A DNA stretch of 64,000 nt. It comes from Octopus vulgaris (Eukaryota). Of this stretch, positions 7,366 through 61,458 are shown piece by piece. The notes below the pieces were generated by a model that searched no databases, was not told where the DNA came from, and saw only the letters and a list, made by a program, of their open reading frames with translations. The position numbers and the translations under genes were made by a program. The stretch covers positions 30,442,001-30,506,000 of the forward strand of contig OX597838.1 of the NCBI GenBank assembly GCA_951406725.2. Direction: 5' to 3'. The number at the start of each line of letters is the position of its first letter. The stretch's first letter is position 1.

Positions 7366-7371
<6 letters not shown>

Positions 7372-7572
7372 TAATCCAAACATGAAAGCACAAAAAAACA
7401 CGTGAGGATGTGGAACAAATATAGTATTATTGGATGCTCAGGAAAGAAGCAAAGAAGGAGGGTTTAACGTTTCGAGTGGAGCTCTTCGTCGGAAACATAG
7501 AAGGAAAGATCCAGAGAAGGGAAGACAGAGGAAAAAAAATCGCCAACGGTACACACGAGGTCACATTTTGAA
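7366..7572 (-). mobile_element. Penelope-like mini-element with minimal hammerhead motif (7462-7496), inserted in (TA)n
   Basis: Minus strand reads gttt-CCGACGA-A-gagctccactc-GAAA-cg-TT-aaac. Flanked by (TA)n; a second copy lies at 61262-61458. Confidence 0.6.
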
Positions 7573-8267
7573 TATATATATATATATACATACAAAAGTA
7601 TGTATGCATATATAAACATATGTATGCAAATATATATATGAATGAATGAATGTATGCATGTGTGTGTATGTGCGTGGCTTAGTGGTCAGGGCATTTGGTT
7701 GACAACCATAAGGCTGTGAGTTCAATCCTCAGTAACACATTGTGTCTTTGAGTAAGATGCTTTATTTCATGTGTGTCCAGTGCACTCATTAAATTCAGCT
7801 GGTGTTTGGAACATAAATTGGCATTAAAAACAAGAAGGTTGTATCTTAGGACCAGAAACAGTCCTAGGCATGTTGGTATCAAAAGGGTGAACCCTTTAAT
7901 TACCATGTTTCTATTGAAAAACACTTTGTTTCAATTAATTAATTAACTTAATTAAGTGTTTGGAAGATAAATTAATTGGAATTTTTGATGGAAGTTTTTA
8001 ATTTACGTCACTTGAAAAAGAAGTTTGTATCACAGAAGCAGGGATGGTCTAAAACAGTTTGATATCAAAAGGGACAAAGATTTAAATAAAAACCTTCCAG
8101 CATTTTTGGAAGAATTTATAAAACCTGGTCATTTTCTGCAACCGTTCAAACGACAGAGGTTAACTGGTCATTGACCATTTTAATACCAACACCTCTGCCG
8201 CTCAAGAGATTGAATCAGAGAACCAGGTGGGTCAGTACCAAAAGAGCTAAATGCCTTTTCAACTCTG

Positions 8268-8658
8268 TACCATAAAACTTAGATCGCTAGCCACTACACA
8301 TTCTTTATTTTCTTTCTGTGTTCCTTTCTGGTGAAGAGCGTAGGCTCGAAACGTTAAAGACTTTTTCATTTTACCCGAGCGTTATACTAATACATCTGTT
8401 TGTTGTCTACACCACATGTCTTCATCTTTTGTTTTTTAAAGAATTCTCCCTATATATATATATATATGGTTCAAATTTGCCATGATAGATCGCTAACCAC
8501 TACACATTCTTTATTTTCTCTCCTTGTTCCTTTCTGCTGAAGAGCGTAGGCTCGAAACGTTAAAGATTTTTTCCCTTCCTGAGCATTATACTAATACATC
8601 TGTTTGTTGTCTACACCACCTGTCTTTGTCTTTTGGTTTTTTTGTGAATTCCCCCTAT
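8268..8658 (+). mobile_element. Two tandem Penelope-like mini-elements with minimal hammerhead motifs (8324-8359, 8530-8565)
   Basis: cttt-CTGNTGA-A-gagc-gtag-gctc-GAAA-cg-TT-aaag occurs twice, and each copy ends in (TA)n. Confidence 0.6.
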
Positions 8659-8949
8659 ATATATATAGTGTTGTGAATTCCTAGAGAGATGCAAGGTTGC
8701 AGGTTTGTTAAAGAGCATAAATGCCATGCTGTGGCATCGATGTCTTTGTCAAGGGACTCTATAACAAGAGAACAGCAGAGACATTTGAAGAGAAATAGAA
8801 GGGAGATAACTGAGGTATGACAACCAGCCCTTGTTGAGTCAGCTTAATGTCTAAACGCGTCGAGATGGATTTCTTCTCAAAAAAAGAGAAAAAAGCAAAA
8901 AGAATTTCAAATTCTTATGAAATAGTAACCTCCATCTTTAGAGATGATG

Positions 8950-9000
<51 letters not shown>

Positions 9001-9229
9001 TCGTAACACAGTGCAGGTAAAAATGCATGGGAGACTTTGGGCATCTGTCAAGTAACAAGGACCTCAGACAGACAATACTTTCCTTATTATTATTATTATT
9101 ATCATTATTATCATTATTTATTTTTTTTCGTCTCAATATTTCTGTCTTCTTTATGTTTTGATCAGTTTGATATTTATTCATCATTGGGTGTCTTATGACC
9201 AGCAACACACATCTGTACACACATTGATG

Positions 9230-9284
<55 letters not shown>

Positions 9285-9426
9285 TTACACACCCACCCAC
9301 ACATATATATATAGTTAGACACACACACATATATATACATGCACACACTTATATATGCGTTATATATATGTGTGTGTGCATGTGTATGCATAAATAATAT
9401 ATATATATATATATGTATGTATACAA

Positions 9427-9457
<31 letters not shown>

Positions 9458-9700
9458 ATCATCATCGTTTAACGTCCACTTTCCATGCTGGCATGGGTTG
9501 GACGGTTTGACTGAGGGCTGCACCAGGCTCCAATCTGATCTGGCAAGGTTTCTACAGCTGGATGCCTTTCCCAATGCCAATCACCCTGAGAGTGTAGTGG
9601 GTGCTTTTTATGTGCCACCGGCATGGGAGCCAGTCAGGTGGCACTGGTAATGACCATGCTCAAATGGTGCTTTTTACATACCACTGGCACAGGACCAGTC
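9458..9700 (-). mobile_element. SINE-like family D
   Basis: catcatcgtttaacgtccactttccatgctggcatggg... Confidence 0.75.
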
Positions 9701-9721
9701 ATATGTATGTATATATATGTA

Positions 9722-9763
<42 letters not shown>

Positions 9764-9825
9764 TACATATATATACACACAAACATATATATATGTGTAT
9801 GCATGAATGTATGTGTATGTGTATT

Positions 9826-9907
<82 letters not shown>

Positions 9908-10185
9908 CAGTGGCTGTGTGTTACTTTGAAATCAATGTATTTGAACCGTGAATCCAGCAAAGCCACCTAGCCAAGCAGCAATGCTGTGTTGGTCAAGGGC
10001 AATGACCCTGGAACTAGTCCACAAAGGTTTTGCGCTGAGTGGGGATGCTGAATTCCTGGTTTGAAAATATAAGGACACAGATAATGTGTTGTATAGCCAG
10101 CTAGAAATGATGTTTCTTGGGGCTAATAAGCAGTAACAACATCCCTTCCAGAACACCCATATTATGTTGGCAATTAAATTTTAGC

Positions 10186-10330
10186 TCCTTGTTTTTTCTG
10201 TGTCCCTTTCTGTAGAAGAGCGTAGGCTCGAAACGTAAAAGACTTTTTCTATTCCTGAGCGTTATATTAATACATCTGTTTGTTTGAACTCCACCTGTCT
10301 TCGTCTTATGTTTATTTTCATAAACTTTCC

Positions 10331-10334
<4 letters not shown>
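10186..10334 (+). mobile_element. Penelope-like mini-element with minimal hammerhead motif (10206-10241)
   Basis: cttt-CTGTAGA-A-gagc-gtag-gctc-GAAA-cg-TA-aaag, followed by (TA)n. Confidence 0.6.
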
Positions 10335-10381
<47 letters not shown>

Positions 10382-10672
10382 AGAATGTATGTTTGTATAC
10401 ATGTACGTACGTATGTATGTAAGCTCTATTTTGTGTTTGTGCCTCTCACAGCTTGACAACCAGTGCTGGTTTGTTGATGGCGCCATAACTTAGTGGTTCA
10501 CCAAACAAAAGAAATTGATATATAAAAAAAGGACCCAATGTATAATAAGTTGATGAGCTGATTTGATTTAACTAAAAATAAAAAAAAAAGTTTTAATAGC
10601 ACCCCAGCATATATATATATATACGTGTGTATATATACATGTATGTACATGTAATATGTATATACATATATA

Positions 10673-10715
<43 letters not shown>

Positions 10716-10848
10716 GTGTATACATACATATATATATACACACACACACACATATATATATTCTATATGCATTTGTCTAGGTGTGTATATGTATATATAT
10801 ATACACACACACGTATTCATATATACATATAAATATATACATATGTAC

Positions 10849-10913
<65 letters not shown>

Positions 10914-11109
10914 TATTAGATTACATATACAAAAAATACTATAAATAAAAAAATGATAAAATAAATAATAATAAAAAATATACTCCATTATCTGAGGAAT
11001 GACAGTTCTTACGTTTTCTTTCCCTTCTTACCGTTCTTCAATTCTCTGCTTTCCCTCTTACCATTATTATTATAATTATTATTGTTGTTGCTGTTGTTGT
11101 TGTTTGCTA

Positions 11110-12090
11110 TTATTCGGCATCTGAACCGAGTCTGTCCAGCATGTGGTAGTTGAAATGGACTCGGTTTTCGAGGAAGACTTCGTTGGTTTTCTCCAGACTG
11201 ACCGGTAAGCAACAACATCGGTCAGTGAGCGCCAGTTTGTATGTGATGAGCCAGATGATGAAGATGACTATGAAATTGGCCATGCCATGGGCCGCAAAGT
11301 ACGTGGACAGAATGCTGATGTTGTAGTCCGTGATGTCCCACTTGTACGGGGAGCAGATGATCGTGCCGTAGTGGCACAGCCACGTGCCCTGCACGAGTGT
11401 GACGAACGAGCGAACGAACGGGAAGACCACCTGGTTGCGATAGTGGAACTCCAGTATGGTCACCACGACGGTCATAATGGCACAGTAAGTGACCAAGTTC
11501 TCACCGATCGAAGCCAGGCTGTCGTCTCGTTCATCGTCCATGACATAGTGACCGAACAGAATCGCCTCGACGCCGAACGCGAATATGAAGATGCAGTAGT
11601 CGAGGCCCTGCGGCAGGCTATAAGTGCACGTCTGTGACCCGATGTTCACCAAACACGAGAGTCCGAAAGCCACAAGGATTATACAGGACCGCAATTTCAA
11701 CATACTATTTTTAGCGTCGTTCAGTTCAGCACCCGATCCAGCGCCACCACCGGCCCAGTTGATTCCAGGCACATGTCGGTAATTTGTGACGAGTAAAAGG
11801 CCACAGATGATGAGGCAGATCTCGATGAAACTCTGTATCAGCTGCTTCCAGCGTTGCTTGCTGCAGGGGTAGACGAGCGACGAATGAAACTCGACGTGTT
11901 TCCACCTCATGAAGAAGAAGATGCGGGTCGTTTGCACGGTCCACCATAACGAGTACAGGATGAACATGACCCCGAGGATGAGGAAGTCAATGTAAGCACA
12001 AGCGAGTTCGGTATTGCTGTTGTTGCTGCTGCCGCTGCCACTGGCCGGTGCATCGCTGCCTCCTTGACTTACGTTTGCACTGTGCACCAT
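11110..12090 (-). CDS. TMEM45/DUF716-family multipass membrane protein, 326 aa, single coding exon
   Basis: Open 981-bp ORF with about 7 hydrophobic segments and family-like motifs LWWTV, FGVEAILFGH, RSFVTLVQGTW, WD and YFAAH. Splice acceptor (tttatttcag, AG at 12098-12099) lies 7 nt before the ATG. Confidence 0.85.
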   Translation of the reverse strand: MVHSANVSQGGSDAPASGSGSSNNSNTELACAYIDFLILGVMFILYSLWWTVQTTRIFFFMRWKHVEFHSSLVYPCSKQRWKQLIQSFIEICLIICGLLLVTNYRHVPGINWAGGGAGSGAELNDAKNSMLKLRSCIILVAFGLSCLVNIGSQTCTYSLPQGLDYCIFIFAFGVEAILFGHYVMDDERDDSLASIGENLVTYCAIMTVVVTILEFHYRNQVVFPFVRSFVTLVQGTWLCHYGTIICSPYKWDITDYNISILSTYFAAHGMANFIVIFIIWLITYKLALTDRCCCLPVSLEKTNEVFLENRVHFNYHMLDRLGSDAE

Positions 12091-12157
12091 CCTTTAACTG
12101 AAATAAACAAACAGAAGAAAATTATCCATCATCATCATCATCATCGTTAATATTATC

Positions 12158-12934
12158 TATTTCTTTACTACCCACAAGGGGCTAAACACAGAGGGGACAA
12201 ACAAGGACAGACAAAGGGATTAAGTCGATTACATCGACACCAGTGCGTAACTGGTACTTAATTTATCGACCCCGAAAGGATGAAAGGCAAAGTCGACCTC
12301 GGTGAAATTTGAACTCAGAACGTAACGGCAGATTAAATACCTATTTCTTTACTACCCACAAGGGGCTAAACATAGAGGGGACAAACAAGGACAGACAAAG
12401 GGATTAAGTCGATTACATCGACACCAGTGCGTAACTGGTACTTATTTAATCGACCCCGAAAGGATGAAAGGCAAAGTCGACCTCGGTGAAATTTGAACTC
12501 TGAACGTAACGGCAGATTAAATACCTATTTCTTTACTACCCACAAGGGGCTAAACATAGAGGGGACAAACAAGGACAGACAAAGGGATTAAGTCGATTAC
12601 ATCGACACCAGTGCGTAACTGGTACTTATTTAATCGACCCCGAAAGGATGAAAGGCAAAGTCGACCTCGGTGAAATTTGAACTCAGAACGTAACGGCAGA
12701 TTAAATACCTATTTCTTTACTACCCACAAGGGGCTAAACATAGAGGGGACAAACAAGGACAGACAAAGGGATTAAGTCGATTACATCGACACCAGTGCGT
12801 AACTGGTACTTATTTAATCGACCCCAAAAGGATGAAAGGCAAAGTCGACCTCGGCGGAATTTGAACTCAGAACGTAGCGGCAGACGAAATACCGCTTAGC
12901 ATTTCGACCGGCGTGCTAACGGTTCTGCCAGCTC
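12158..12934 (-). repeat. Head-to-tail tetramer of SINE family B (4 x 184 bp; the last unit carries the tRNA head)
   Basis: Units start at 12158, 12342, 12526 and 12710, with identical junctions aaatacc|tatttctttac. Confidence 0.9.
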
Positions 12935-12959
12935 AATGCCTTAATATTATCGTTAATAT

Positions 12960-13600
12960 TATCATTATCACCACAACTGTCATTATGGCTACGAATGCCA
13001 CAACGACCACTGACGCTGCCACCACAACAACAACCGCAACCACCAACACTACCACTATCATCAATACCGCCATCACCACCAACACCACCGTCACCACCAC
13101 CAGCAGCATCAATAGCAGCACCAACACCACTGTCACTACCACCACCACCACCACCACCAACATGACCAACACTGCCATTGTCATCTCCCCTAGCACTACC
13201 ACCACTACCAGCGTTAATAGCGGCACTAACACCACTGTCACCACCACCACCATCACCAACACTGTCATCGTCAACTCCACTAGCACCACATCCACCACCA
13301 CTACTATCACTGCTATCATCAACACTGCCATCACCATCACCACCACCACCACCAACACCACTGTCACCACCAACACCACCACCACCACTACCAGCATTAA
13401 TAGCGGCACTAACACCACTGTCACCACTATCACCACCACCACCACCACTACCAGCATCAATAGCAGCACCAACACCACTACCACCACCATCACCACTACC
13501 ACCACTACTATCACTGCTATCATCAACACTGCCATCACCACCACCAACAACAACAACAACATTACCAGCATCAATGGCAGCACCAACACCACTGCTACAA
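12960..13600. repeat. Degenerate (ACC)n trinucleotide array with higher-order repeats
   Basis: acc/act triplets with recurring blocks agcatcaatagcagcaccaacacc and aatagcggcactaacaccactgtc. Confidence 0.85.
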
Positions 13601-13624
13601 CCACTTTCTCTTCTACAGTCACAA

Positions 13625-14114
13625 ATTGGATTTCGTAGGCGTAAACTGAAACAAGCCCTTTGTATCTCTGCTCAATACCACAGACTTGCTTGTCAGTTGT
13701 TTGACTTTAACCAGTTGAGCATGTCCCTTAGTGGCTGACGATATGTGCATCTCTGATCACGAGCAGAAGTAATGGGGGAGCATCATAGCCATGTGTTGAG
13801 AGGAATTCTTTGGGGTTTGGATAATTCACCTCTGGAAACATGGGTGTTTCGTTCAACATCCTTAAACAACCCTTATTCAGGGACCTTTTGAGCGGGATGG
13901 GCTACTCGACCAGAAGAAAATTCTAACTGGGCCCCACCTGCAAGGTCATGCACTGTTTATCTTGACATGATATCACCATGTTGCGCACATATGATTGTGA
14001 TGCATGTGCCTGGTGTACCCTTATCAGACAGGTAGACACGATGGGTATACTGGGCTTCGTGTATTTTACCCCAGTGTCACTTTGATGGCATACACTGCTC
14101 TCTCACTCAATAAT
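13625..14114 (+). mobile_element. Interspersed repeat family E (ends ctctcactcaataat)
   Basis: Reverse-complement match to 45112-45690; a third copy starts at the window end (~63990). Confidence 0.7.
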
Positions 14115-14280
14115 CCTTTCTACTGTAGGCACAAGCCCTAAAATTTGGTGAGGAGGGGAGTAGTCAATTACATCGACCCCAGTGTGTACCTGGTACTTAA
14201 TTCATCGACCTCGAAAAGATAAAAGGCAAAATGAACCTTTGTGGGATTTGAAGCCAAAACATAAAGATGGATGAAATACT

Positions 14281-14682
14281 CTTTTACTCTTTTACTTGTT
14301 TCAGTCATTTGACTGCGGCCATGCTGGAGCACCGCCTTTTTAGTCGAGCAAATCGACCCCGGGACTTATTCTTTTGTAAGCCCAGTACTTATTCTATCGG
14401 TCTCTTTTGCCGAACCGCTAAGTAACGGGGACGTAAACACACCAGCATCGGTTGTCAAGCAATGCTAGGGGGACAAACACAGACACACAAACATACACAT
14501 ATATATATATACATATATATGATGGGCTTCTTTCAGTTTCCGTCTACCAAATCCACTCACAAGGCATTGGTTGGCCCGGGGCTATAGCAGAAGACACTTG
14601 CCCAAGGTGCCACGCAGTGGGACTGAACCCGGAACCATGTGGTTGGTTAGCAAGCTACTTACCACACAGCCACACCTGCGCC
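14281..14682 (-). mobile_element. SINE family A, full length, nested in a family B SINE
   Basis: Complete A copy. Family B sequence continues on both sides (14113-14280 and 14687-14730), and tact is duplicated at 14277-14280 and 14683-14686. Confidence 0.88.
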
Positions 14683-15029
14683 TACTACTAAGCATTTTTT
14701 ACCCAGCATGCTAACGAATCTGCCAGCTCAAAGCCTCTAATTTATAATTAATATTGGAAACGAGAATTTAAGCAGAAAAAGAAAATGATGTTATTTACAG
14801 GTTTCGTTGGTTTCTAAGAAACATTTTTGGTTTTTGGTTGCTAAGGTATTTTTTTGCTGAATGGTCCATCAACAAGATTCTTGTTTGAGTCTCAAGACAA
14901 TAGTCTCAAACATTTTGAAGAAAATGGATCTGGAATGAGAGAAGAAAAAAATAAATAAATAAAATGCAAATAAAAAAAAAAGAAACATTTCAGTTAAAAA
15001 TTACAGACCATGTTCTGGTGTGGACACGT

Positions 15030-15705
15030 ACACACACAGACATACATGCATGCATACACACACTTACATACATGCATACGTATACACATACATATACATA
15101 CATACACAAACGCATTCATACACACACACACACACCTATATGCACACATACACACAAACATACACACACATGCATATATACACAGAGATACACATGCATA
15201 CACACACACATACATACAAACATACGTACACACACACATACACACACATGCATACATATACACACATACATAAACACATTCATACATACACACCCACACC
15301 CACATGCACACATGCATACATACATACACGCATACATACACACACATACATAAACACATTCACACACACACACACACCCATACGCACACATGCATACATA
15401 CACACACATGCATACACATAGAGATACACATGCATACACATATACATACAAACATACGTACACACATACATGCACACACATGCATACATACACACACACA
15501 CACCCATAAGCACACATGCATATGTACATGTACACACACACACAGATATACACACACAGATATACACACATATGTATACATACATACACATGCATACAAA
15601 TACACAGATACATACATACACACATATACATACATATATACATACATACATACACACACATGCAGACACCCAGACACAGACACACATACATACACACACA
15701 CACAC
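15030..15705. repeat. (CA/CATA)n compound microsatellite
   Basis: Visible directly in the sequence. Confidence 0.9.
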
Positions 15706-15912
15706 CCTGTGGAAAAGAATATAAAGAACAGTTATCACATGACTGATTCTCTAGCAGTGGTTGTTGTTGTTGTTGCTGTTGTTGTTATTGCCAGGCTGAG
15801 GTCTTCCTTTATCAACAGAACAGTTTGATCTGACGTTGATGAATGGGTGTGTGGTTAACGAGTTTTCTTCCCAAACCGAGTGGCTTTGGGATTCACTCCC
15901 ACAGCTTGGCCC

Positions 15913-16390
15913 ATCATCATCATCATCATCGTCGTCGTTTAAGGTCCGCTTTCCATGCTATCATGGGTTGGACGATTTTGACTGAGGTCTGGCGAACCAG
16001 ATGACTGCACCAGGCACCAATCTGATCTGGTAGAGTTTCTACAGCTGGATGCCCTTCCTAATGCCAACCACTCCGAGAGTGTAGTGGGTGCTTTTACGTG
16101 CCACCGGCACGGGGGCCAGTCAGGCAGTACTGACAACGACCTCGCTCGAATCTTTTTACACATGCCACTGGCACAAGTGCCAGTAAGGTGATGCTGGTAA
16201 GATCATGCTCGAATGGTGCCTTTTATGTGCCACTGACACAGAAGCCAGTTAGCCGCTCTGGCAACAATCATGCTCGGATGGTGCTCTTAGCACCTTACTA
16301 GCACGGGGCACTAGTGCCAGTAAGGCGACGCTGGTAATGATCACACTCAAATGGTGCCTTTTATGTGTCACTGGCATGGAAGCCGGTTGG
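15913..16390 (-). mobile_element. SINE-like family D
   Basis: (CAT)n tail plus several ~60-bp tgccac/tggcac units. Confidence 0.8.
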
Positions 16391-16454
16391 CCCTCAGATA
16401 ATAATACAGTCTGGGGTCACCAGAAGCCTTGCAAGTGGATTTTTAAAAAAAAAA

Positions 16455-16712
16455 GGGTCAAAGGTCCATCGTGAATCATATAGATAGACTCATAAGGCTG
16501 GTTTCCCTGATTTTGCGGTGTATATTATCCTCCTGGATGGGAAGATGGTCTGTTGCAAGGTGACTCACTTTTGCAGATGAGTGGATTGGAGCAACATGAA
16601 ATGAAGAAATGTTTTGTTCAAGAACACAACACACTGCCCAGTGAAGGGACTGAACCCACACTCTTATGATCATGAGTCCAACACCGTAACCACTGAGCCA
16701 TGTGCTTCCACC
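16455..16712 (-). mobile_element. tRNA-derived SINE with V/Ceph-like central domain (related pieces at 7675-7810 and 51990-52045)
   Basis: Minus strand reads tggctcagtggtta...gggttcagtccc...gttgtgttcttgaacaaaacatttc...gttgctccaatccactca. Confidence 0.6.
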
Positions 16713-22980: not shown

Positions 22981-23150
22981 AGTATATATATGCGCAGGCA
23001 TGGCTGTGTGGTAAGAAGCTTGCTTTCCAACCACATGGTTCTGGGTTCAGTTCCACTGCATGGTACCTTGGGCAAGCGACAAAAGCCTTGTGAGTGAATT
23101 TGGTAGATGGAAACTGGATAAGCATGTCATATATATATATATATATATAT

Positions 23151-23302
23151 AAGTTCATTAAAATTTAGATTCAGTTGTATACGGTACTTAAGTATAGGCA
23201 CCAGAATTTGGTATGGTATTATCCATATAAGCAACAAGAATATCTAGAGGTAATGAAACGATCGTAGTGCATTACCTCTGGATATCCTTGTTGCTTATTT
23301 TG

Positions 23303-23306
<4 letters not shown>
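23151..23306. mobile_element. Penelope-like fragment with fold-back end, in (TA)n
   Basis: 29-bp inverted repeat (23227-23255 / 23270-23298, 2 mismatches) around gaaacgatcgta; homologous to 26943-27150. Confidence 0.55.
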
Positions 23307-23336
<30 letters not shown>

Positions 23337-26811: not shown

Positions 26812-26816
<5 letters not shown>

Positions 26817-27149
26817 AAAAAAGCAACAAGAATGGATTAAAATCTCGGTACGATCGTTTCGTACGAGGACATCTTTAATAAGCTACAAAAAATGCAGTGA
26901 ATACAGATGGCTCGTACTCGTCAGCCGAAAAAACATCAGAGAATTCACTGCATTTTTTGTAGCTTATTAAAGATGTCCTCGTACGAAACGATCGTACCGA
27001 GATTTTAATCCATTCTTGTTGCTTTTTTCCTATTTGTAATCACCCCACTTGTCGTATGGTTAACACCATATAGATTTCCGGTGCATCCTAGTTAAGGACC
27101 ATATTCATGTGAATTCTTTAGAATTCACTTGAATCTCAATTACTTAACC

Positions 27150-33672: not shown

Positions 33673-34489
33673 GGATTCATAGAATCGGCAGAGCACCGTA
33701 TAACATGCCTTGAGTGAATTAGCTACGAATCCTTACGTTCTAAGTTCAAAGCTCGACGACGTCAACTATTTAAAAAATTTTTATTAATTACCAGTATACG
33801 AAGTTTCAAATTGTTTAGTTAACTAGAAATTCCGTCCATCAAACGGAAAAGATCCATATTATTACTTCTTCCAGATTTGATAAGAATTAAATATCAATTA
33901 ATGCACAGGGATGTGCGTCGATATATTATCGATTATTAATTGTGAGACATTGTGTTAACCTGAGAAATCGATATTTATCCGACTCATAAATTTCGGGAGG
34001 ATTTATATGAAAAATATTCTTAACACAATATCGATTACGGGACGACACACAGACAAAATAAAAAGTCATCTCACTTGAACATTACCTATAGGTTCGTATA
34101 CAAACTGCGTGGAGTGAGAACACACACACACACACATAGATATACAAACATACATATATATATATGTGTGTGTGTGTGTGTGTATATATATATACACATA
34201 AATACATGTATGTATATATATATATACATACATATGTATGTGTGTGTGGGTATACACACATGCATCTATATATACATAGAATATATACACAAACATATAT
34301 ATATATCTAAAATTAAATAATAAGGGTAGAAATTGAATTAAAACCAGTGGCTTAGCATATTTAAAAAATCCGAAGATTAAAAATTGTGTGTATATATATA
34401 TATGTATGTATGTATGTATATATATATATATATATACACACATATTATTTTATATATATATACATATACATATATATATGTATATATAT

Positions 34490-34682
34490 TCGCCATGATA
34501 GAACGTTAGCTACTTCACACATTTTTTTCTCCTTGTTTTTTTTCTGTGTCCCTTTCTGTAGAAGAGCGTAGGCTCGAAACATAAAAGACATTTTCTATTC
34601 CTGAGCGTTATACTAATACATCTGTTTGTTTTATACACCACCTGTCTTCGTCTTTTTTTTTTTTCGTAAACTCTCCCTATGT
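34490..34682 (+). mobile_element. Penelope-like mini-element with minimal hammerhead motif (34552-34587), in (TA)n
   Basis: cttt-CTGTAGA-A-gagc-gtag-gctc-GAAA-ca-TA-aaag, with TA repeats on both sides. Confidence 0.6.
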
Positions 34683-35199: not shown

Positions 35200-35975
35200 A
35201 TATATATATATATATATATACTTGTATATATAAATAGATGTGTGTATTTTTCCCTTGTTAACAATTAACCTGTACATACATACATACACACACACACATA
35301 TATACATACACACACATAAACAAATGTCTGTATGGATGTTTTAAGTAAAGATTACGAAAGAAAAATAACTCAGAGTCTAGTGGCATCTATGTGATCAATA
35401 TAAACAAGTATATATATATATATATGTATATATATGTGTGTGTGTGTGTGTGTTTCTTTATATATAATTTTTATACCTATATTATTGCGGCGTACGTACA
35501 CCTCGTTCCCTTATGTATGCTTACATTCTATCCATTTGTACGACTTCTAAAAACTTTCTCTATACCTCACTTTCTGTCTTTCTCTTTCTCGCCTTGATTC
35601 TTTGGTCCCCCTCTTCCCCCACGAATGAACAAAACCAACATACCAGGTTTTGTTCATTCATGATATATTTTGAATTCGTTTCACTGAAGAGCAAGAGACG
35701 TAGATAATACGTTAATTGCGAAATCACAGGTGATCTGGAACTAAATTCTGTTTTTAAATGTCTTGCTTCGAGAGCTGCATTCGGTACGATTTGTTTATTT
35801 TTGGTAGTTATGACTTTAAAAGTCCGTCCTAGCGTGTGGCATTTATGTGTAATAATGCCCTCTATATAATATAAATAAATATTTTCAAGTTAAAAAATTT
35901 ACAGATTTTTTCTCTTATGAGGTTTTTCACGCTAACTACCTGATAATTTCTTATTAAGATTTTATCCTATTTTTA

Positions 35976-36023
<48 letters not shown>

Positions 36024-49120: not shown

Positions 49121-49154
<34 letters not shown>

Positions 49155-49828
49155 GAGAATTCACAAAAAAAACACAAGACGAAGACAGATGGTGTAACAG
49201 GCTTCTTTCAGTTTCCGTCTAGCAAATCCACTCACAAGGCCTTGGTTGGCCCAAGGGATAAGTAGAAGACACTTACCCAAGATGCCATGCAGTGGGACCG
49301 AACCTAGATCCATGAGGCTGGGAAGTAAGATTCTTACCACACAGCCATGCCCGCATCACTACATACATGCACCCCGGTACACCTTTCTTAAGAAAAGACT
49401 TTATGATTTGAGGGAGCTGTGGCTACTATTTCCATCTTTATGTGGCTGGTCCAGTGACTGTACAGACTGGCAGTGGAAATGGTGGTGTTGGTGGTAGTGA
49501 TTAAGACAAATTTTTAGTAAAAGACAAAAAAAAAAACCCCAACAATACAGTCAGACAGGCAGACACATACACAAAGCCACACACACTTCTAATGGGCATA
49601 CATACATACATATACAAACATAATAGATATAGATATGCACACACAAATATATGTATACACAAAGCTAGGTTGGCCTAAATACTGGAAGAAAGAATTATAC
49701 CAAGTTAATAAAAGAGGGCAATACACATACACATACACATATATGTGTGTGTGAATCTATCTATCTATATGTATATGTGTGTGTGTATGTATCTCTCTAT
49801 CTATCATGTGTGTCTACCTATCTATATG

Positions 49829-52310: not shown

Positions 52311-52321
52311 AGTCCACCAAT

Positions 52322-52620
52322 GGCCTCTTCACTCCTGCTCCAGAGCGTCGGCTGCGGGGTCACTCCGAAAAGCTCTATCTGAGACGATTTCATCTCAATC
52401 GAAGGAGAGGGGCTTTCTCCGTCCGGGTTGCGGATCCGTGGAATAAGCTGCCGGACGAGATAGTGAAGTTGCCGATGACCGCTCGGTTCAAAGTCTCTCT
52501 TGACCAGAAATGGCCTGAACTCTTTGCATGAACACCCTCCCTGTACATAACTCCATGTACCCCTACATGGCCTTCCCTTTTGCTTTTGAGCCAAAAAATT
52601 AACTTAACTTAACTTAACTA
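52322..52620 (+). mobile_element. CR1-clade LINE 3' end with (AACTT)n tail
   Basis: TPAPERRLRGHSEKLYLRRFHLNRRRGAFSVRVADPWNKLP. Confidence 0.85.
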
Positions 52621-53484
52621 TTTGATGATAGTTAACTTACAATTAAGATGAGGACCAAAACAGCAGAGTACCCCACCCCCCACCCAGCTCTCTAACGAGT
52701 GCCAGTTTGTCTTTAGGTCAAGAACAGAACCAACACCATTTGCCCTTTCAATACCATTAAAGCTGAGACAACCACTCCCCCATTTCTATAATAAAAATAC
52801 CTTGTTTCAAACTGATCTAAAATATTTCTTTGAGGTATCGGCCTGAAATTTTGTGGGAGTGGGCAGGGGGGGGGTAAGTCAATTACATTGACCCCCAGTG
52901 TTTAACTGGTATTTATTTCATCAACTCTAAAAGAATAAAAAGCAAAGTCGACCTTGGCAGAATTTGACCCCAGAATGTAGAGACAGAATGTACCAGACGG
53001 TGAGATTGAACCTAAAGGCCATTATTTGGCTGTGAAATGATTGTCTTAGTCGCAAAGCCATGTCCAAATTTATGGTCAATTCTGGCCATTACAGGTTGAA
53101 AAGTCAGAAGTTTCAAATCATCATCATTTAACATCTGTTTTCCCTGCCGGCATGGGTCAGACAGTTTGACAGGAGCAGGCAAAATCAGGAGTTGTCCAGG
53201 TTCCATTGGTTTCTACAACTGGAATACCCTTCCTAATGCCAACCATTTTACAAAGCGGACTGGGTGTCTTTTTTTGTGGCACCATCACCGTTGCTTTTAT
53301 ATGGCACCAGCACCAGTGCTTTTTATGTGACACCAGAACCAGGGCTCTTTGTGTGGCCCCATCACCATTGCTTTTATGTGGCACCAGCACCAGTGCTTTT
53401 TATGTGGCACCAGCACCAGTGCCTGTTACGTGGCACCAGCACCGGGGCTCTTTGTGTGGCACCATCACCATTGCTTTGGGAGCA

Positions 53485-53695
53485 AAATCTTGTTCTTTAT
53501 GCAGGGTTTGTTGATCTCATGAAAGCACTCGATCCAGTCGGTTGCAAAGGACCTTGTTAATGCCTTTCAAAATCAGGATGTCTGTGAGGAAAGGTGGCCA
53601 ACATTGATTCAATCATTTCACGATGGCATGAAGACATGTCTTGCAGGTCTTGAAGACACGTCACATACATTCTTGGTCTCAAATGGAACCAAACA
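53485..53695 (+). mobile_element. RTE-clade RT fragment
   Basis: LYAGFVDLMKALDPV...IQSFHDGM...FLVSNGTKQ. Confidence 0.65.
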
Positions 53696-54102
53696 GAGAC
53701 ATGAAGAAAGGTTGAAGACACCCGACCTTTATTCTCTAGAAAAACGCCGACGACGTGGTGATCTCATTCTTGCTCACAACATCATAAGCGGAAAGTGTAA
53801 CCTCTCGAAAGAGCTGTTCTTCACTCCTACTCCAGAGCGTCGGCTGCGGGGTCACTCCGAAAAGCTCTATCTGCGATGATTTCATCTCAATCGAAGGAGA
53901 GGGGCTTTCTCCGTCTGGGTTGCAGATCCGTGGAATAAGCTGCAGGACGAGATAGTGAAGATGCCGACGACCGTTCGGTTCAAAGTCTCCCTTGACCACA
54001 AGTGGCCTAAGCTCTTTACATGAACACCACCCTGTACATAACTCCATGTCCCCCTACATGGCCTTGCTTTTTGCTTTTTGAGCCAAAAAATTAACTAACT
54101 AA
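53696..54102 (+). mobile_element. CR1-clade LINE 3' end, same family as 52322
   Basis: EERLKTPDLYSLEKRRRRGDLI...LRGHSEKL; (AACT)n tail. Confidence 0.85.
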
Positions 54103-55647
54103 CATCATGACATTTTAAAGAAATATTGGCAAGGATGTGTAGTAACAAGTTTGCTTCCCAACCACATGGTTCGGGGTTCAGTCCCACAGCGTGGCACCTT
54201 AGGCAAGTATCTTCTACTCTTGCCTCATGCCAACCAAAGCCTTGTGAGTGGATTTGGTAGGTGGAAACTGAAAGAAGCCTGTTGTGTGTGTGTATCTCTG
54301 TGTCCGTGTTTGTTTCCCCACCACCATTTGACAACCGATGTTGGTTTGTTTATGTCCCCTGCAATTTGGTGGGGTTCAGCAAAAAAGGTGTACCAGACTT
54401 AAAAACGAAACAAAAAAAATGCACCAGGGTCGATTCATTCAACTAAAAGTTCCACAAAGCAGTGCCCCAGTATGGCCACAGACTAATGACTGAAACAAGT
54501 AAAAGAATGATAAAAGATAACTAACCATTCAACACATATTGGCCACAAATGGACCCAAGTTGGGCAAGATTTGGCTGGCATTTCTAGCAGATTAATAGAC
54601 CATGCATAGGCTCAGAAGAGCCTGAGTTGCCTCTTCATTTATTTAATTAAGCCAGAGGTCAATCAAGAGGTCAGTAGTGACCTCTTGAAATTGTACTTTG
54701 CTATCTTAAAAAGGAAAGAGGACCCTTCAATAATGTATTCCTAGGTATACTATGCCGGGGAAATAATAAAAAGGGAAGAAGATGGGGAGGTCACAGTTGG
54801 AAAGCCAGCTTAACCTAGGCTGACCATGGGCTAAACACCAACAATAACCATCATAACAGTTAATATCACTTCATCCAACACCACCACTACTACCGCCACG
54901 ACCACCATACCTTCTACTACTACTACTACTACTACAATGACTACCACTACCACCACTACTACTACTACTACTACAATGACTACCACCACCACCACCACTA
55001 CTACTACTACCATCACTACTACTACTACTACTATTACTACTACCACCACCATCACCACCTTCATTACAGGTTACACTCTTCTTGCACGGACGCATGCCCT
55101 TTCCAGAAACAGCAGCTAAATATCCCTCAGAAAGTCCCACACTCTACCGTATAAAAAAAAAGACAAAGAAAGAAACGATACACTGGGGGCTCTGCCACGG
55201 TAAATCTAGTGCTCCCTGACAACACACACACCACACACACACACACACACAGGATGGTCACGGCTGGAATGCCGCCTTGCTCGATCAAGGAACATCTAAC
55301 GGATGGGACCAACCGCGACGACTACGACGGCGACGACGAGAGCTTCCACCATTACTGTTTGTCTATTGATTCCAGCTCCCTACTATTACTACTACAACAA
55401 CAACTACTACTACTACTACTACTACAAGGGGGGCCCCTTTATAACAACGAGCTCGCTCCCTTCCTATCAACTGAAACCCCAGCTCTATAACCCTCCCCTC
55501 CACCACGCACACACTCCATCGCTTGCTCCTATTTTTCTATCTTCTAAATATAGTACAGAAGGAGTTGGAAGGCGAGGCGAGCCCAGACAGACATAGACAC
55601 ACAGACAGAGAAAGAGAGAGAGAGAGAGGGAGAGAGAGAGACAAGGA

Positions 55648-55686
<39 letters not shown>

Positions 55687-55923
55687 CACACACACACACA
55701 GAGGCATTTTTCCAGCCCCTACCATCTCCCCGGAGCGCAGACATCGTCGCCGACGCTACCGTCGTACCGCCGCCACCGCCACCGACATCACACTTCCTCT
55801 CTTCACGCTTGCACACTTGTAACTTTCACCACCGCCGCCACCACCACTACCAACGCCGCCGCCGCCGCCACCGTTCAAGGAAGAAGCCTCTCTCTAAGGC
55901 AGAGTCACTTGGAAACTCGTATC

Positions 55924-56109
55924 AGAAATAGCAGCTAAAATACCAATCAAATGATTCTCTACCGACCTGAAGGGAAAAGGCTTTGAACAACAATAACAAC
56001 AACAACAACAAGTGCATCCATTACACTTGTTACAACACCTTCAAAACTTAGAAATAGCAGCTAAATACCTCTCAAATGATTCTCTACCGACCTGAGGTAG
56101 GGAAGGCTC

Positions 56110-56140
<31 letters not shown>

Positions 56141-56385
56141 ATAATAATAATAACAACAAATGCATCCATTACACTTGTTACAACACCTTCAAACCTAGAA
56201 ATAGCAGCTAAATACCTCTCAAATAACCTATTAATCCTTTAAAAAAATGTAAAATAGGAGGGATATTTTGACAGACGGGGGGGGGGGGAGGTTTCAGGAA
56301 CAATAACAACAATAACAAACGCATAATTATAATAAGGCTTGTTACAACACCTCTGCTAGAAATAGCAGCTAAATCTCCCTCAGAT
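55924..56385. repeat. Imperfect tandem repeat (units ~126-161 bp) built on agaaatagcagctaaat plus (AAC)n
   Basis: Motif starts at 55924, 56050, 56197 and 56358. Confidence 0.75.
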
Positions 56386-56544
56386 CATAGAATAAGAATA
56401 AGAATAAACAAGGGGGAAAGGAAAAACACAGTAGACGATTTAGTTTTGGGGGCATAAGAAATAAATAAATAAATAAATATGACTGGATGGTCGCGTGTGG
56501 AACGGTAAGTTGGTTCAGGTTTTATGACCTGGGGTTCAACAATA

Positions 56545-57002
56545 AAACTACCACCACAACTACTACTACTACCACAACTACCACTACCACCACTACTACT
56601 ACTACTCCCACCACCACAACTACTACTACCACCATCACCACTACTACTACTACTACTACCACCATCACCACTACTACTACTACCACCATCACCACTACTA
56701 CTACTACTACCACCATCACTACTACTACTACCAATATTACTACTACTACTACTACAACAATTACTACTAATGATCTCTACCACCACCACCACCACTACTA
56801 CCAGTAGAACCACCACCACTACTACTATTACCACCACCATCGCCACCAGCACCACCACTACTACTTGTACGACCGACATCATCTCTACCACTACTACCAC
56901 CACCACCATCACCACTACTACTACTAGCATGACCACTCTCACCACCACTACGGCTACTACCACCATCACCACTACTACTACTACTATTACTACTACCACC
57001 GT

Positions 57003-57039
<37 letters not shown>

Positions 57040-57080
57040 GTCACTACTACTACTACTACTATTACTACTACCACCGTCAC

Positions 57081-57111
<31 letters not shown>

Positions 57112-57132
57112 GTCACTACTACTACTACTACT
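56545..57132. repeat. (ACT/ACC)n trinucleotide array
   Basis: Visible directly; a similar array lies at 54880-55060. Confidence 0.9.
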
Positions 57133-57931
57133 AGATTCAGTCTGATCCCTACTTGGGGCCCTGTTTCCTTTCCCCCCAAATCAAGTTTATGCAACATCAA
57201 ACCCCCACCCCACCCCAACACCCATCCATCACCACCAATTACAATAACAACAACTAGAACACCCACTGCTTACTTCCTCCCCTGTATTGGTGGTGGTGGT
57301 GGTGGTGGTAGTAGTACAGTAAGAGAGAGAGAGAGAGGGAGGAAAAGAGAAGGGGGAGAGAGAGAGAGAAAGAAAGAAGAAAAAAAAAACAGGGGGTCTA
57401 TGCCCACCAACCAACCAACCAACCGGCCGGCCGGCCGGCCAACCAGGCACTCCCACCTTCACTTCCGCCACTACTACCACCACCGCCGCCGCCGCCATCA
57501 TATTTACACATATCTGGAGTACAGCTGCACTGTAAGACAACAAACATCACCACCACCACCAACACCAACGCCACTACTACTACTACTACTACGACTACTA
57601 CTACCACCATCACTGTGGCTGCTGTTGCTGGCAAACACACACACACCACCGACCCAACCTAGCACCGGCTTCCTTCCCCCCACCCCGGCCTGCCTACTCC
57701 AACGCCGCCGACCTCCCCCCTGCTTCTACAGTCAACAGTCACTATGACCACCACCACCACTACAACCCCCTCCACACACACACACACACACACTATGTAT
57801 GTGCATTGTTGCTTTAGTTACCACCACACATGCATGTCAATACACCATCAAAGCGAGGTGTGTGCGTGAGGTTGCACATATAAACATGCCTGTTTACGAG
57901 TATGCGAGCGCGTGTGTATATGTACAAATGC

Positions 57932-57967
<36 letters not shown>

Positions 57968-57978
57968 ATATATATATA

Positions 57979-58390
57979 CAGGAGTGGCTGTGTGGTAAGT
58001 AGCTTGCTAACCAACCACATGGTTCCGGGTTCAGTCCCACTGCGTGGCATCTTGGGCAAGTGTCTTCTGCTATAGCCCTGGGCCGACCAATGCCTTGTGA
58101 GTGGATTTGGTAGACGGAAACTGAAAGAAGCCTGTCGTATATATGTATGTATATAAGTGTGTGTGAATATGTTTGTGTGTCTGTGTTTGTTTCCCTAGCA
58201 TTGCTTGACAACCGATGCTGGTGTGTTTACGTCCCCGTCAGCGGTTCGGCAAAAGAGAGCGATAGAATAAGTACTGGGCTTACAAAAGAATAAGTCCCGG
58301 GGTCGATTTGCTCGACTAAAGGCGGTGCTCCAGCATGGCCGCAGTCAAATGACTGAAACAAGTAGAAAGAGAAAAAAAAGAGTAAAGAGT
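57979..58390 (+). mobile_element. SINE family A, full length
   Basis: Runs from caggagtggctgtgtgg to the tail. Confidence 0.9.
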
Positions 58391-58547
58391 ATATATATAT
58401 ATATATGTGTCGGTGCCCCAGCATGGCCACAGCTCATAAGCTGAAACTAGAATCAATCAATCATATATGTAGAGAGAGGGGGAAGGAGAAAGAGAAATGT
58501 CCACAAGCATGGGTGATACAACATAACAGTTTATCCAAGCACATATT

Positions 58548-58864
58548 ACTCTCTTTTACTCTTTTACTTGTTTCAGTCATTTGACTGTGGCCATGCTGGA
58601 GCACCGCCTTTTTAATCGAGCTACTCGACCCCGGGACTTATTCTTTTTCTGTAAGCCCAGTACTTATGCTATCGGTCTCTTTTTTTGCCGAACCGGTAAG
58701 TAACGGGGACATAAACACACCAGCATCGGTTGTCAAGCAATGCTAGGGGGACAAACACAGACACGCATATATATACATATACATGACGGGCTTCTTTTCA
58801 GTTTCCGTCTACCAAATCCACTCACAAGGCTTTGGTTGGCCCGAGGCTATAGTAGAAGACACTT
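58548..58864 (-). mobile_element. SINE family A, 5'-truncated, inverted relative to 57979
   Basis: Reverse-complement copy. Confidence 0.88.
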
Positions 58865-58889
58865 ATGGTAGGCTATAGTAGAAGACACT

Positions 58890-58916
58890 TATATATATAT
58901 ATATATATATTTATAT

Positions 58917-58947
<31 letters not shown>

Positions 58948-58960
58948 CACATACATATAT

Positions 58961-59006
<46 letters not shown>

Positions 59007-59236
59007 ATATACACATACATATATATATATGTATACACATACATATATACATACATATATATATATATACACATACATATATACATACATATATATATAT
59101 ATATACATACATATATATATACATATATATATATATACACACACATATATACATACATATATATATGTATGTATATATATATATACACATACATATATAC
59201 ATACATATATATATATACATATATACATACATATAC

Positions 59237-59270
<34 letters not shown>

Positions 59271-59300
59271 ACATATACACATATACATATATACATATAC

Positions 59301-59349
<49 letters not shown>

Positions 59350-59365
59350 TACATATATATATGTA
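58890..59365. repeat. (TA/CA)n microsatellite
   Basis: Visible directly in the sequence. Confidence 0.95.
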
Positions 59366-60216
59366 CATGTGCGTGTATGTACATAAGCAGCCATGTTTAT
59401 ATGTGCGACAAGCTCATGCATTCTTTATTTGAATTGTGGATAATCCTCCAGTCTTTGGAATAAGCGGCTCTTTTTAATCATACATAATAAATCTTTTATC
59501 TTTTACCGGTTTCACTAAGCGGACCACGCCCACGCTGGGGCACTGCCTCGAAAAGCTTAATGGAACACATTAACTCCCAGTACTAATGTTTGATTTTTAT
59601 TTCGTTAACGTCTGACACCTATTCTATTACTCTCTGTTGCTGGACTGCTAAGTTATGGGGATGTAAACAGACCGACACCGGTTGCCGAGTGGTGAGGGAG
59701 GGAGAAACGCAAACGTACACATATACACAAACACTCACATTTATACTTAAGCAACAGGCTTCCACACAGTTTCCATCAACCCAAATTCACCCACAAGATA
59801 CTGGTTGGCCCAGGGTTATGGTATAAAATACTTGACCAGAGGAGGCAAGTGTGACTGAACCACAAACCACATGGTTTGTAGGTATATATATACATATACA
59901 CACACACACACATATATATATATATCCTTGTGAGTGGATTTGGTAGATGGAAACTGAAAGAAGCCTATCGTATATATGTATATTTATATATATGTGTGTG
60001 TGTATATATGTTGTGTATCTGTGTTTGTCCCCCAAAAAATTTCTTTGACAACCGATGCTGGTGTGTTTAGGTCCCCATAACTTAGCGGTTTGGCAAAAGA
60101 GACTCATAGAATAAGTACTAGGCTGACAAAGAATAAGTCCTGGGGTTGATTTGATTCGACTAAAGGCGGTGCTCCAGCATGGCCACAGTCAAATGACTGA
60201 AACAAATAAAAGAATA

Positions 60217-60450
60217 TCTATTATATAAAATCCTTTCTGTCTGTCTGTGTGTGTGTCTTCTAGGATCTCGGGCATCCTCCATCCGATTGTGCTCAAAGTT
60301 GATATGTAGATACCAACGGTATTAGGGCGTCTATAAGTCTTGAAAAAATTGCAAAAATCGATTCCAGGTGAGAATGCGATCGATAAAGCCGTGGGAACGT
60401 GCATTTGTAAAATCGTTTTTCTTGGAATAGAAAAAAAGGCTATCTTTATT
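60217..60450 (+). mobile_element. Non-autonomous Helitron-like 5' end
   Basis: a|TCtattatataaaa start, (ctgt)n tract, and ccgattgtgctcaaagttg motif typical of Helitron-N/HINE elements. Confidence 0.45.
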
Positions 60451-60665
60451 TCTTCTTTTGCTGGTGTCTCAAATTTAGGTTAAATCAGTGTTTCTGAAAG
60501 GGGAGGCCTATGGGACGGTCAGACAAGTTGTTTTGAGAAAATTTGGTTTAAATGTTTGACAACTCAGCGCCCTCCATTGGACAGGGAGGGGCGTTTTGCT
60601 TGTGTATATATATATATATGGCAAATGAAAGACGGAAGATGGAATATATGAGAATTTATTATCTA

Positions 60666-60771
60666 ATCACGACAATTGTTTCGACACATTTAGCATCGAT
60701 CCCTCATGCGTGGAACACTCCACAACTGGTTCAGGATCATCTGGTGGAGCAGGTGTGTCTCATCAGGTGAT
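60666..60771 (-). ncRNA. Type I hammerhead ribozyme, canonical core, with branched stem II insertion
   Basis: atcac-CTGATGA-gacaca...tgtgtc-GAAA-caattg-TC-gtgat: stem I 5 bp, stem II 6 bp, palindromic stem III ACAATTGT, GUC site. AATAAA follows shortly after (60655-60660). The host element ~60619-60840 is flanked by (TA)n. Confidence 0.82.
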
Positions 60772-61261
60772 AGATAGACAGTACCACAATGTAACTTCTC
60801 ATTAAGCTACCAGGTGTAAACCATTCATTTCATTATCCAATATACATATATATATATATTTGATTTTTTGATTTTTCCAGTTTCAGCTAATGAGCTGTGG
60901 CCATGCTGGGGCACCGCCATATATATATATATATAAACTGTACTTGGAGAAGAAGAAACGAAACGAAACGAATTGAATCGAATCGACGTGAGGGCGCTCA
61001 GTCATACAATAGTGTAATGAATAAAATATATGCATACATACATACATATATGTACGTACCTACATCTACATGTATATATACATGCATATATAAATATATA
61101 TACGTGAGTACAGGACACCACAAATAGACGTAGAACTCAACGAGAAACGAAAACGTAAAAACAAGCATGGAACGGACCATTTTTTTTTACAACGAAAAAA
61201 CAGAGTACGAGACAAACTAAACAAGGAAAAAACCCCTTCATCAGCTGTCCCTAGTTCAACT

Positions 61262-61458
61262 CCAAACAAGAAAGCACAAAAAAATCACAACGCGAGGACA
61301 TGGAACAAATATAGTATTATTGGACGCTCAGGAAAGAAGGAAAGAGCGAGGGTTTAACGTTTCAAGCGGAGCTATTCGTCGGAAACATAGGAGAAGGAAA
61401 GATCCAGAGAAGGGAAGACAGAGGAAGAAAAATCACCAACGGTACACACGAGGTCACA
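61262..61458 (-). mobile_element. Penelope-like mini-element with decayed minimal hammerhead (61352-61386)
   Basis: Second copy of 7366-7572: gttt-CCGACGA-A-tagctccgctt-GAAA-cg-TT-aaac. Confidence 0.55.

Follow-up and report, generated by a model that had tools for sequence, protein, structure and literature searches.

Why do hammerhead ribozyme motifs recur beside TA microsatellites in an octopus chromosome, and what are the short elements that carry them? The window analysed here is a whole stretch of 64,000 nucleotides (nt) from Octopus vulgaris (assembly GCA_951406725.2, contig OX597838.1, positions 30,442,001 to 30,506,000 of the forward strand). An initial annotation, made from the letters alone, had listed eight hammerhead-like motifs and a half motif in it, each within a short element that lacks an open reading frame (ORF) and abuts (TA)n repeats, and had taken these elements for a class of non-autonomous, ribozyme-processed retroelements mobilised by Penelope-like elements (PLEs). 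Our results suggest a different answer. With a probability of roughly four in five, the listed elements are pseudo-long terminal repeats (pLTRs) of protein-coding PLEs that likely enter (TA)n by target-primed reverse transcription of uncut RNA, the short copies of Neptune type being likely run-off products. A family that had not been listed, here called E, is the exception, and the description as non-autonomous and ribozyme-processed does fit that family. Hammerheads in truncated PLE ends that prefer (TA)n are already known biology.

Parent elements and hammerhead cores

Judged by their sequence, the four listed families are pLTRs of protein-coding PLEs present in this genome, two of Neptune type (A1 and A2) and two of Hydra type (B and C). 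Longer copies of all four run 5' into frames for an endonuclease or a reverse transcriptase (RT). The proposed link to PLEs is thereby borne out and the idea of a separate non-autonomous class is not, the more so as a tree of 79 sequences places ORF-linked A2 repeats among the short copies. In locus L260 a stop-free frame of 816 codons lies between two A2 copies and reads as RT (with DKG and YxDD), a CX2-5CxxC linker and, at the C terminus, an endonuclease of the GIY-YIG type; the Pfam matches to RVT_1 (E 0.0016) and GIY-YIG (E 0.0079) are both below the curated cut-offs. Among 13 long A2 loci, chosen out of 30 for the longest 5' reach, the repeat is found downstream in 10, upstream in 6 and on both sides, as a direct repeat, in 5. 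Copies of A1 share a fixed 3' end; 7 of 30 reach further 5', one of them into the end of a GIY-YIG frame. Endonuclease frames are present for this family as well, with the CX2-5CxxC linker ahead of the endonuclease in loci such as L046 and L054, and when loci were found with an endonuclease fragment, A1 lay downstream on the same strand at 20 of 25 (19 of 24 without the seed). Only the downstream pLTR copy and a read-through leader were observed for A1. Just 5' of their hammerhead, the A1 and A2 pLTRs also have a long polypyrimidine tract and, after it, an AG, an arrangement that resembles a splice acceptor as in the 5' intron of Penelope; no GT-AG joint was found in the A2 5' region among the contigs of five sequencing runs presumed to be RNA.

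For families B and C, RT and endonuclease frames lie upstream in L146, L147, L275, L273 and L274. The linker CxCX5C is present in L275, L147 and L274 and absent from L273, no CCHH motif was seen, and CxxC and CxH stand around the conserved E and N in L275, L147, L274 and L273. All three cysteine-containing motifs are described for the Hydra clade in the text of Craig et al. (2021, PMC8557442); a Nematis-type origin of B and C was dropped, since the published Hydra motifs fit. The fetched copies lack the N-terminal RT region, where the clade would have its DKT and RWK motifs. Copies of B and C are ordinary 5' truncations. Inverted pairs (at 23142-23308, 26812-27149 and 60620-60845) and optional tails, the latter carried by 16 of 30 B copies, are among the PLE features described there (PMC8557442). 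Family B is very young, all 40 of its 40 scored matches being 100% identical. Its frame (L275 2183-4965; also L146 and L147) has long asparagine-rich stretches and a 3' untranslated region (UTR) of 1.2 kb with internal repeats, and every fetched frame is broken. Family D (L391-L401) has top matches that are 98-99% alike, a stem III of 5 bp, frequent inversions and two 3' ends at TA. No parent was found for D; an endonuclease frame in L398 is cut off from it by a TA run.

The motif descriptor allowed one core mismatch and an optional extra base and required a palindromic stem III. It had been tuned after viewing the window and was therefore rerun on 80 random stretches of 10 kb (800 kb), which were drawn with lower-bound chromosome lengths, so that distal ends are under-sampled. 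The window gives 8 matches, whereas 20 shuffles average 0.25 and never exceed 2, and the random sample gives 11 with a similar descriptor against 0, 1 and 0 in three shuffles, which places the motif frequency well above that of shuffled sequence. Six of the window matches were listed earlier (cores at 7492-, 8328+, 8534+, 10210+, 26924- and 60766-), one had been missed (35684+) and one looks like chance (16574+). The motifs at 34552(+) and 61352(-) belong to homologous copies with a decayed stem III and stem II, respectively, and fail the descriptor, and 23255 is a half motif within an inverted pair; all nine listed motifs are thus present in the sequence, two of them decayed and one half. By homology, about 40 family copies were found in the 800 kb, that is, one per 20 kb, which extrapolates from the random sample to about 1.4e5 copies in the genome of 2.8 Gb. 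The earlier estimate of about one per 8 kb does not hold genome-wide, the window (11 in 64 kb) being about three times denser than average, and instead of four sequence families at least seven were counted (A1, A2, B, B2, C, D and E). Candidate counts are at least 3288 for A1, 2224 for A2, 1037 for B, 2590 for C, 1549 for B2, 1276 for D and 2252 for E. Two more type I hammerhead families, unrelated to those of the window, were seen in the random sample (L174 + 8760 and L182 + 2971; L157 - 4122).

The extra base 9/10.1, the G10.1-C11.1 pair and a palindromic stem III are all present in A1 and A2; B and C lack the extra base but keep the pair and the palindrome, and their stem II is long. The canonical core CUGANGA is kept in 30 of 30 B copies and 11 of 12 D copies. 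Nearly all readable A1 copies have U at core position 6 (28 of 29 copies of subfamily A1b read CTGTAGA), and C stands at position 4 in most copies of A2 (CCGACGA in 20 of 29) and of C (CCGACGA in 16 of 30). Because family C mostly reads CCGACGA, the canonical core of the C copy in the window is likely a product of CpG decay. Single-strand folding supports the motifs of B (z -3.6) and D (z -2.1) only; six others have z-scores from +0.5 to -1.3, which is usual for minimal motifs and speaks neither for nor against them. The min-HHR hammerheads of metazoan PLEs, reported as thousands of mostly single copies, were ascribed to truncated PLEs (Cervera and de la Pena 2014, PMC4209133). Our families resemble them in the type I order, the extra base 9/10.1, the G10.1-C11.1 pair, the palindromic stem III and the occurrence of opposite-strand pairs. 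They differ in the U6 of A1, the mostly C4 cores of A2 and C and the long stem II inserts of B and C, and the available text of that study describes no 5' wall of the kind reported below.

These data bear on the model of the initial annotation, in which all listed elements would be retrozyme-like, released by the hammerhead and copied from circular RNA. The intact canonical cores of B and D are in its favour, the tail seen on 16 of 30 B copies requires a template that is tandem or circular, and animal retrozymes are stated to derive from pLTRs (bioRxiv 10.64898/2026.07.22.740005). However, the copies are monomeric and retain the whole hammerhead with about 80-110 nt upstream of it, their 5' ends show no accumulation at the cut, the cores of A1 have U6 and those of A2 and C mostly C4, and insertion in vitro did not need a hammerhead in the experiments described in PMC11167929. 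We regard this model as very improbable for the listed elements. The units of animal non-LTR retrozymes are described as 170-400 nt long (PMC7229834), or up to 972 nt (bioRxiv 10.64898/2026.07.22.740005), and as carrying type I hammerheads. The likeness to them lies in the lack of an ORF, the relation to pLTRs and the hammerhead itself, whereas the listed elements are monomers with ends away from the cut, and even the neighbouring pair at 8280 and 8475 is split by a TA run.

TA tracts, the 5' wall and leader junctions

Association with TA was scored in random-sample copies as a (TA)4 starting within 10 nt of the 3' end. This was found for 10 of 12 A1, 7 of 9 A2 and 2 of 3 C copies, in total 19/24, as compared to 33/215 for the 3' ends of control short interspersed elements (SINEs) stripped of their own tails (12/72, 11/94 and 10/49; Fisher p = 2.5e-10) and 3.8% for random positions. 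SINE ends are also TA-enriched over random positions, far less than PLE ends; two other control ends gave 0/48 and 0/60 and were kept out of the comparison, their boundaries being poorly defined. TA adjacency beyond that of other repeats is what we find; as a correction to the initial annotation, the copy at 61352 has no TA at its 3' end, which runs into family E. Of the B copies, 14/30 end directly in TA and 16/30 have a tail, and the six tailed ones that were inspected all end in TA. The variable 5' ends adjoin TA too (19/28 A2 and 16/27 A1b copies), and because of this, insertion into existing tracts is favoured over seeding: of the two possibilities that had been offered, targeting fits better, and the copies were likely inserted into pre-existing (TA)n tracts. 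A (TA)n preference is listed for Hydra-1_Obim and three octopus Naiads in the tabulated part of PMC8557442. Different families of PLE ends often adjoin within one TA tract (L093, L097, L119, L133, L186, L377, L411 and window positions 60620-61459), which suggests that one and the same tract was entered repeatedly.

The 5' ends of the Neptune-type copies are not scattered. With queries comprising the hammerhead and the 3' end only, and with sets made up of the top matches to one window copy each (A2 and A1b), 27 of 29 A2 copies begin at 0..+17, within 18 nt and at a distance of about 215 nt from the 3' end; of the other two, one begins at +55 and one beyond. For A1b, 26 of 29 copies begin at a site of this kind or 3' of it; the edge falls off more gently on its 3' side, and 3 of 29 reach beyond. 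Families B and C have no such wall, any 18-nt window holding at most 3 of 26 B ends and at most 4 of 27 C ends. At the wall stands an initiator-like hexamer, then three bases and ATG. The hammerhead cut is about 100 nt further downstream, and the wall is therefore not a cleavage product.

Of 30 loci that were anchored by the A2 leader, 12 read on into the ORF, whereas 18 are ORF-less and rejoin a second pLTR. In these 18 loci the leader is 232-510 nt long (248-310 nt in 15 of them), the pLTR starts at -48..+36 and the junctions differ from one another. Overlap at the junction is mostly 0-3 nt (9-21 nt in three loci), and the second pLTR mostly ends in TA. A reading of these loci as long tails was ruled out, junctions having been found instead. 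Contigs of the five presumed-RNA runs contain pieces of E and A2 and leader-to-pLTR joints.

Sequence read past the fixed 3' end begins with TTATATA in A2, TAT in B, ATATA in C and ATATAT in A1, and all of A1, A2, B, C, D and E encode a short TA run directly after that end. It is possible to account for these observations by a single route. The GIY-YIG endonuclease would nick (TA)n, and the nicked strand would anneal to the encoded UA run and prime; such annealing would explain both the fixed 3' end and the target. Target-primed reverse transcription of uncut RNA into existing (TA)n is the likely mode of insertion. If RT begins copying where the upstream pLTR has its 3' edge and runs off the 5' end of the RNA, a solo pLTR would be inserted. 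The wall would then correspond to the transcription start, and the leader junctions would record template jumps in which RT leaves the RNA 5' end for the AC-rich leader close to the start codon. As described for Penelope, transcription starts inside the pLTR, which holds the promoter (PMC2377424), and the RT of Poseidon is reported to work on uncut RNA and to begin inside it, at the pLTR-ORF junction (PMC11167929). In vitro, the Poseidon element PAc is described as using two internal start sites that define the tail, and AT-rich targets (Frangieh et al. 2024, PMC11167929); the start site there is not homologous to the target, whereas here each fixed 3' end is at an encoded TA run. With the Neptune and Hydra PLEs as described in PMC8557442, our elements share pLTRs, 5' truncation, inverted 5' copies, tails and insertion at (TA)n. 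Tails are longer here, up to 75-117 nt as compared to 30-40 nt there, the 3' UTRs here extend up to 1.2-2.5 kb, and encoded TA microhomology and run-off copies do not appear among the features which the available text of that paper describes.

The wall and the leader junctions could also have arisen at the level of DNA, by stalling at a structure, by microhomology joining to TA-like letters, or by deletions that struck full-length elements later. In favour of this, TA-like letters at +8 or +9 are where many 5' ends lie, and solo pLTRs of a rotifer were ascribed to recombination or deletion (PMC3846280). On the other hand, junction overlap is mostly 0-3 nt, the three overlaps of 9-21 nt aside, TA-like letters 5' of the wall are seldom used, and random deletions would not all stop within 85 nt of a 5-kb element. 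An origin of this kind seems improbable to us.

A further question is whether the short A1 and A2 copies are truly non-autonomous, with a solo pLTR transcribed from its own promoter into flanking TA and copied in trans in the manner of a SINE. This we hold to be unlikely, although it is by no means far-fetched. The wall defines a discrete unit of about 190-220 nt, the pLTR of Penelope is described as containing a promoter (PMC2377424), and two variants are commoner in short copies (21/49 vs 1/17 and 18/52 vs 0/23). Yet both variants were also seen in the leader- or ORF-linked loci L365 and L368, the search favoured alleles of the window copy, and ORF-linked pLTRs intermix with short copies in the tree. 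In addition, the 18 copies with leader junctions require a template that bears the leader. The SINE-like route may add to the main route, which is likely run-off copying of uncut PLE RNA.

Several points weigh against the run-off reading and the assignments on which it builds. The wall hexamer is imperfect: it reads TCTTTC in most ORF-linked A2 repeats, GCATTC in subfamily A1a and TCAGTC in a few A1b copies, and its match to what we take to be the initiator consensus is weak. Because the letters at the wall are TA-like, joining by microhomology may make it sharper. A2 copies of full length begin elsewhere, the upstream repeats of the 12 ORF-linked loci starting at scattered places. The A2 and A1b sets represent one subfamily each, and in the random sample only 5 of 12 A2 copies are at the modal length. 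The view from the RNA side consists of assembled contigs, which are blind to starts, strand and level; the summed contig depth is steeply lower at the wall, but it carries no copy number and was not counted as evidence. As to the parents, the Pfam matches of their frames stay below curated cut-offs, two pieces of L275 have no match, and the clade assignments rest on motifs rather than on a reference tree.

Family E and its S-G-C-order hammerhead

Family E is an ORF-less unit of about 800 nt, in which the longest ATG frame has 76 codons, and the same wrap-around junction is found in L406, L415 and L420. Among its longer copies, TA flanks the unit, the 3' end takes two alternative forms and one 5' copy is inverted. 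The fetched flanks upstream of E-type copies yielded no Naiad-like frame. The unit occurs in partial tandem and is likely moved in trans by PLE proteins.

The hammerhead of E has the block order cut site, GAAA, CUGAUGA (S-G-C) and is not of type I. Family E resembles the animal retrozymes in being a tandem-permuted ORF-less unit, and its block order distinguishes it from them as described. A descriptor for this order gave 16 matches in 1.98 Mb of fetched loci, 12 of which came from the E search, three from diverged subfamilies and one likely from chance. Among 11 aligned copies, 4 of the 5 pairs in each of stems I and III are changed on both sides, and none of 500 shuffles reaches the covariation score. 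Pairing holds in 94.1% of cells as compared to 83.2% in shuffles and 27-55% in slid controls. The direct stem II, between the G and C blocks, pairs in 90.9% of cells, with G-U in two of its four pairs. Both strands of stem II can alternatively pair with an upstream hairpin, the pairs being all Watson-Crick in E1 and compensatory in L145, and 17 of 26 pairs have two-sided changes; stem II may form in either way. Of 39 5' ends of E, 10 lie at +1..+26 after the predicted cut, while the three windows before it hold 1, 0 and 3 (p = 0.006). The hammerhead of E is predicted to cut its RNA. A conserved purine-rich internal loop with tandem GA was observed between stem III and its distal helix in L281, L356, L221 and L142.

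Whether the motif of E might be a chance or dead arrangement, and no ribozyme, has to be asked. Cleavage rests on prediction, the direct stem II has two G-U among four pairs, and nested folding, which cannot compute pseudoknots, fails to yield the fold. Two more points count on this side: in the random sample the S-G-C descriptor has 1 match, likely chance, against 0, 0 and 0 in shuffles, and the covariation set comprises 11 related sequences of about five subfamilies from which the structure itself was derived. Against a chance origin stand stems I and III, whose changes are compensatory between diverged subfamilies that retain the core blocks, the pile-up of 5' ends after the cut, and the end of a published octopus Naiad consensus, which by eye has the same order and stems. 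We find a chance or dead arrangement distinctly improbable.

The Naiad comparison concerns two cephalopod Naiads tagged 'HHR_half_core' in the material of Craig et al. (2021, PMC8557442). At the end of the Naiad_Obim consensus we recognise by eye the block order of E, a stem I of 6 bp, a stem III of 5 bp and an upstream strand that pairs with the G block. The nearest described ribozyme is the type-SGC hammerhead HRIMA-1, which, as reported by Eckert et al. (2023, PMC10085705), came only from metatranscriptomes and from no genome of a known organism. E resembles it in the S-G-C order, a short linker between stems I and II (3 nt in E1) and covarying stems I and III. It differs in being chromosomal and present in thousands of copies, and in that both strands of stem II can pair with the extra upstream hairpin. 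No description of an S-G-C-order hammerhead in animal genomes was found within open-access PMC and bioRxiv.

Elements of the window and meaning for Penelope-like elements

Several elements of the window had been missed. Family A2 is represented by two solo pLTRs of the Neptune-type PLE. The one at 7369..7572 (-) has a minimal type I hammerhead with core CCGACGA at 7492, its 5' end at the wall and TA on both sides; the one at 61261..61459 (-) has core CCGACGA at 61382 and a decayed stem II, and its 3' end is fused directly to family E. Two A1 pLTR ends follow each other at 8280..8450 (+), where the core at 8328 has decayed to CTGGTGA and TA adjoins the 3' end, and at 8475..8655 (+), with core CTGCTGA at 8534; the TA run lies between them. 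Subfamily A1b contributes pLTR ends at 10178..10332 (+), with core CTGTAGA at 10210 and TA at the 3' end, and at 34488..34679 (+), where stem III is broken by a point change and the 5' end is at the wall, and in addition a 3' fragment of 46 nt without hammerhead at 49151..49196 (-).

A head-to-head inverted pair of family B2 lies at 23142..23308, with a tail and 3' end facing a truncated 3' end and TA on both sides, and holds only the half of the hammerhead that comprises GAAA and the cut site. The very young Hydra-type family B has a 3' end at 26812..26946 (-) with a complete hammerhead, the canonical core CTGACGA at 26924 and a long stem II. Its inverted, 5'-truncated partner at 26943..27149 (+) has a tail of 117 nt, ends in TA and contains a previously unlisted half hammerhead at 26984. 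A young copy of family D at 35646..35990 (+), which had escaped notice, has a canonical type I hammerhead with core CTGAAGA at 35684. The 3' end of Hydra-type family C at 60620..60845 (-) has core CTGATGA at 60766 and a long stem II, and a piece of its own tail lies inverted ahead of it. The 3' half of a family E unit at 60926..61264 (-), likewise missed, is part of the ORF-less unit of about 800 nt, has a tail that ends in TA and retains only the CUGAUGA block (61244-61238) of the S-G-C-order hammerhead.

Outside these elements, Rfam at gathering scores recognised no hammerhead across the window, and its sole match is the tRNA-like sequence at 7669-7740 (+), of 31.8 bits and with several pairs broken, which is likely the head of a SINE. 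A stop-free frame of 327 codons at 11110-12093 (-) matches DUF716 (E 1.4e-7) and is likely a single-exon membrane-protein gene. At 12157-12893 a unit of 184 bp is repeated four times in tandem with 98% identity and belongs to a dispersed repeat that is common, with 48 ends among the random stretches.

The regeneration of pLTRs is called unexplained in the discussion of PMC2377424. The sharp wall, the encoded TA priming sites and the 18 leader-to-pLTR junctions make a model of run-off and jump testable. The listed elements add new members to PLE clades that are already known. What goes beyond known biology here is the evidence for run-off and jumps and the encoded TA runs at the fixed 3' ends, together with family E. 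On the widest reading, the octopus genome would hold thousands of ORF-less, circle-forming copies cut by an S-G-C hammerhead that uses an extra upstream hairpin for stem II, a fold that would also be the missing ribozyme of Naiad, and the run-off copies and leader jumps would be the record of a strong-stop-and-transfer process that regenerates pLTRs; we give this combined reading even odds. If it is true, family E would extend non-circularly permuted hammerheads from environmental RNA to animal chromosomes, and would account for the 'half core' in the Naiads, which the text of PMC8557442 reports as without hammerheads.

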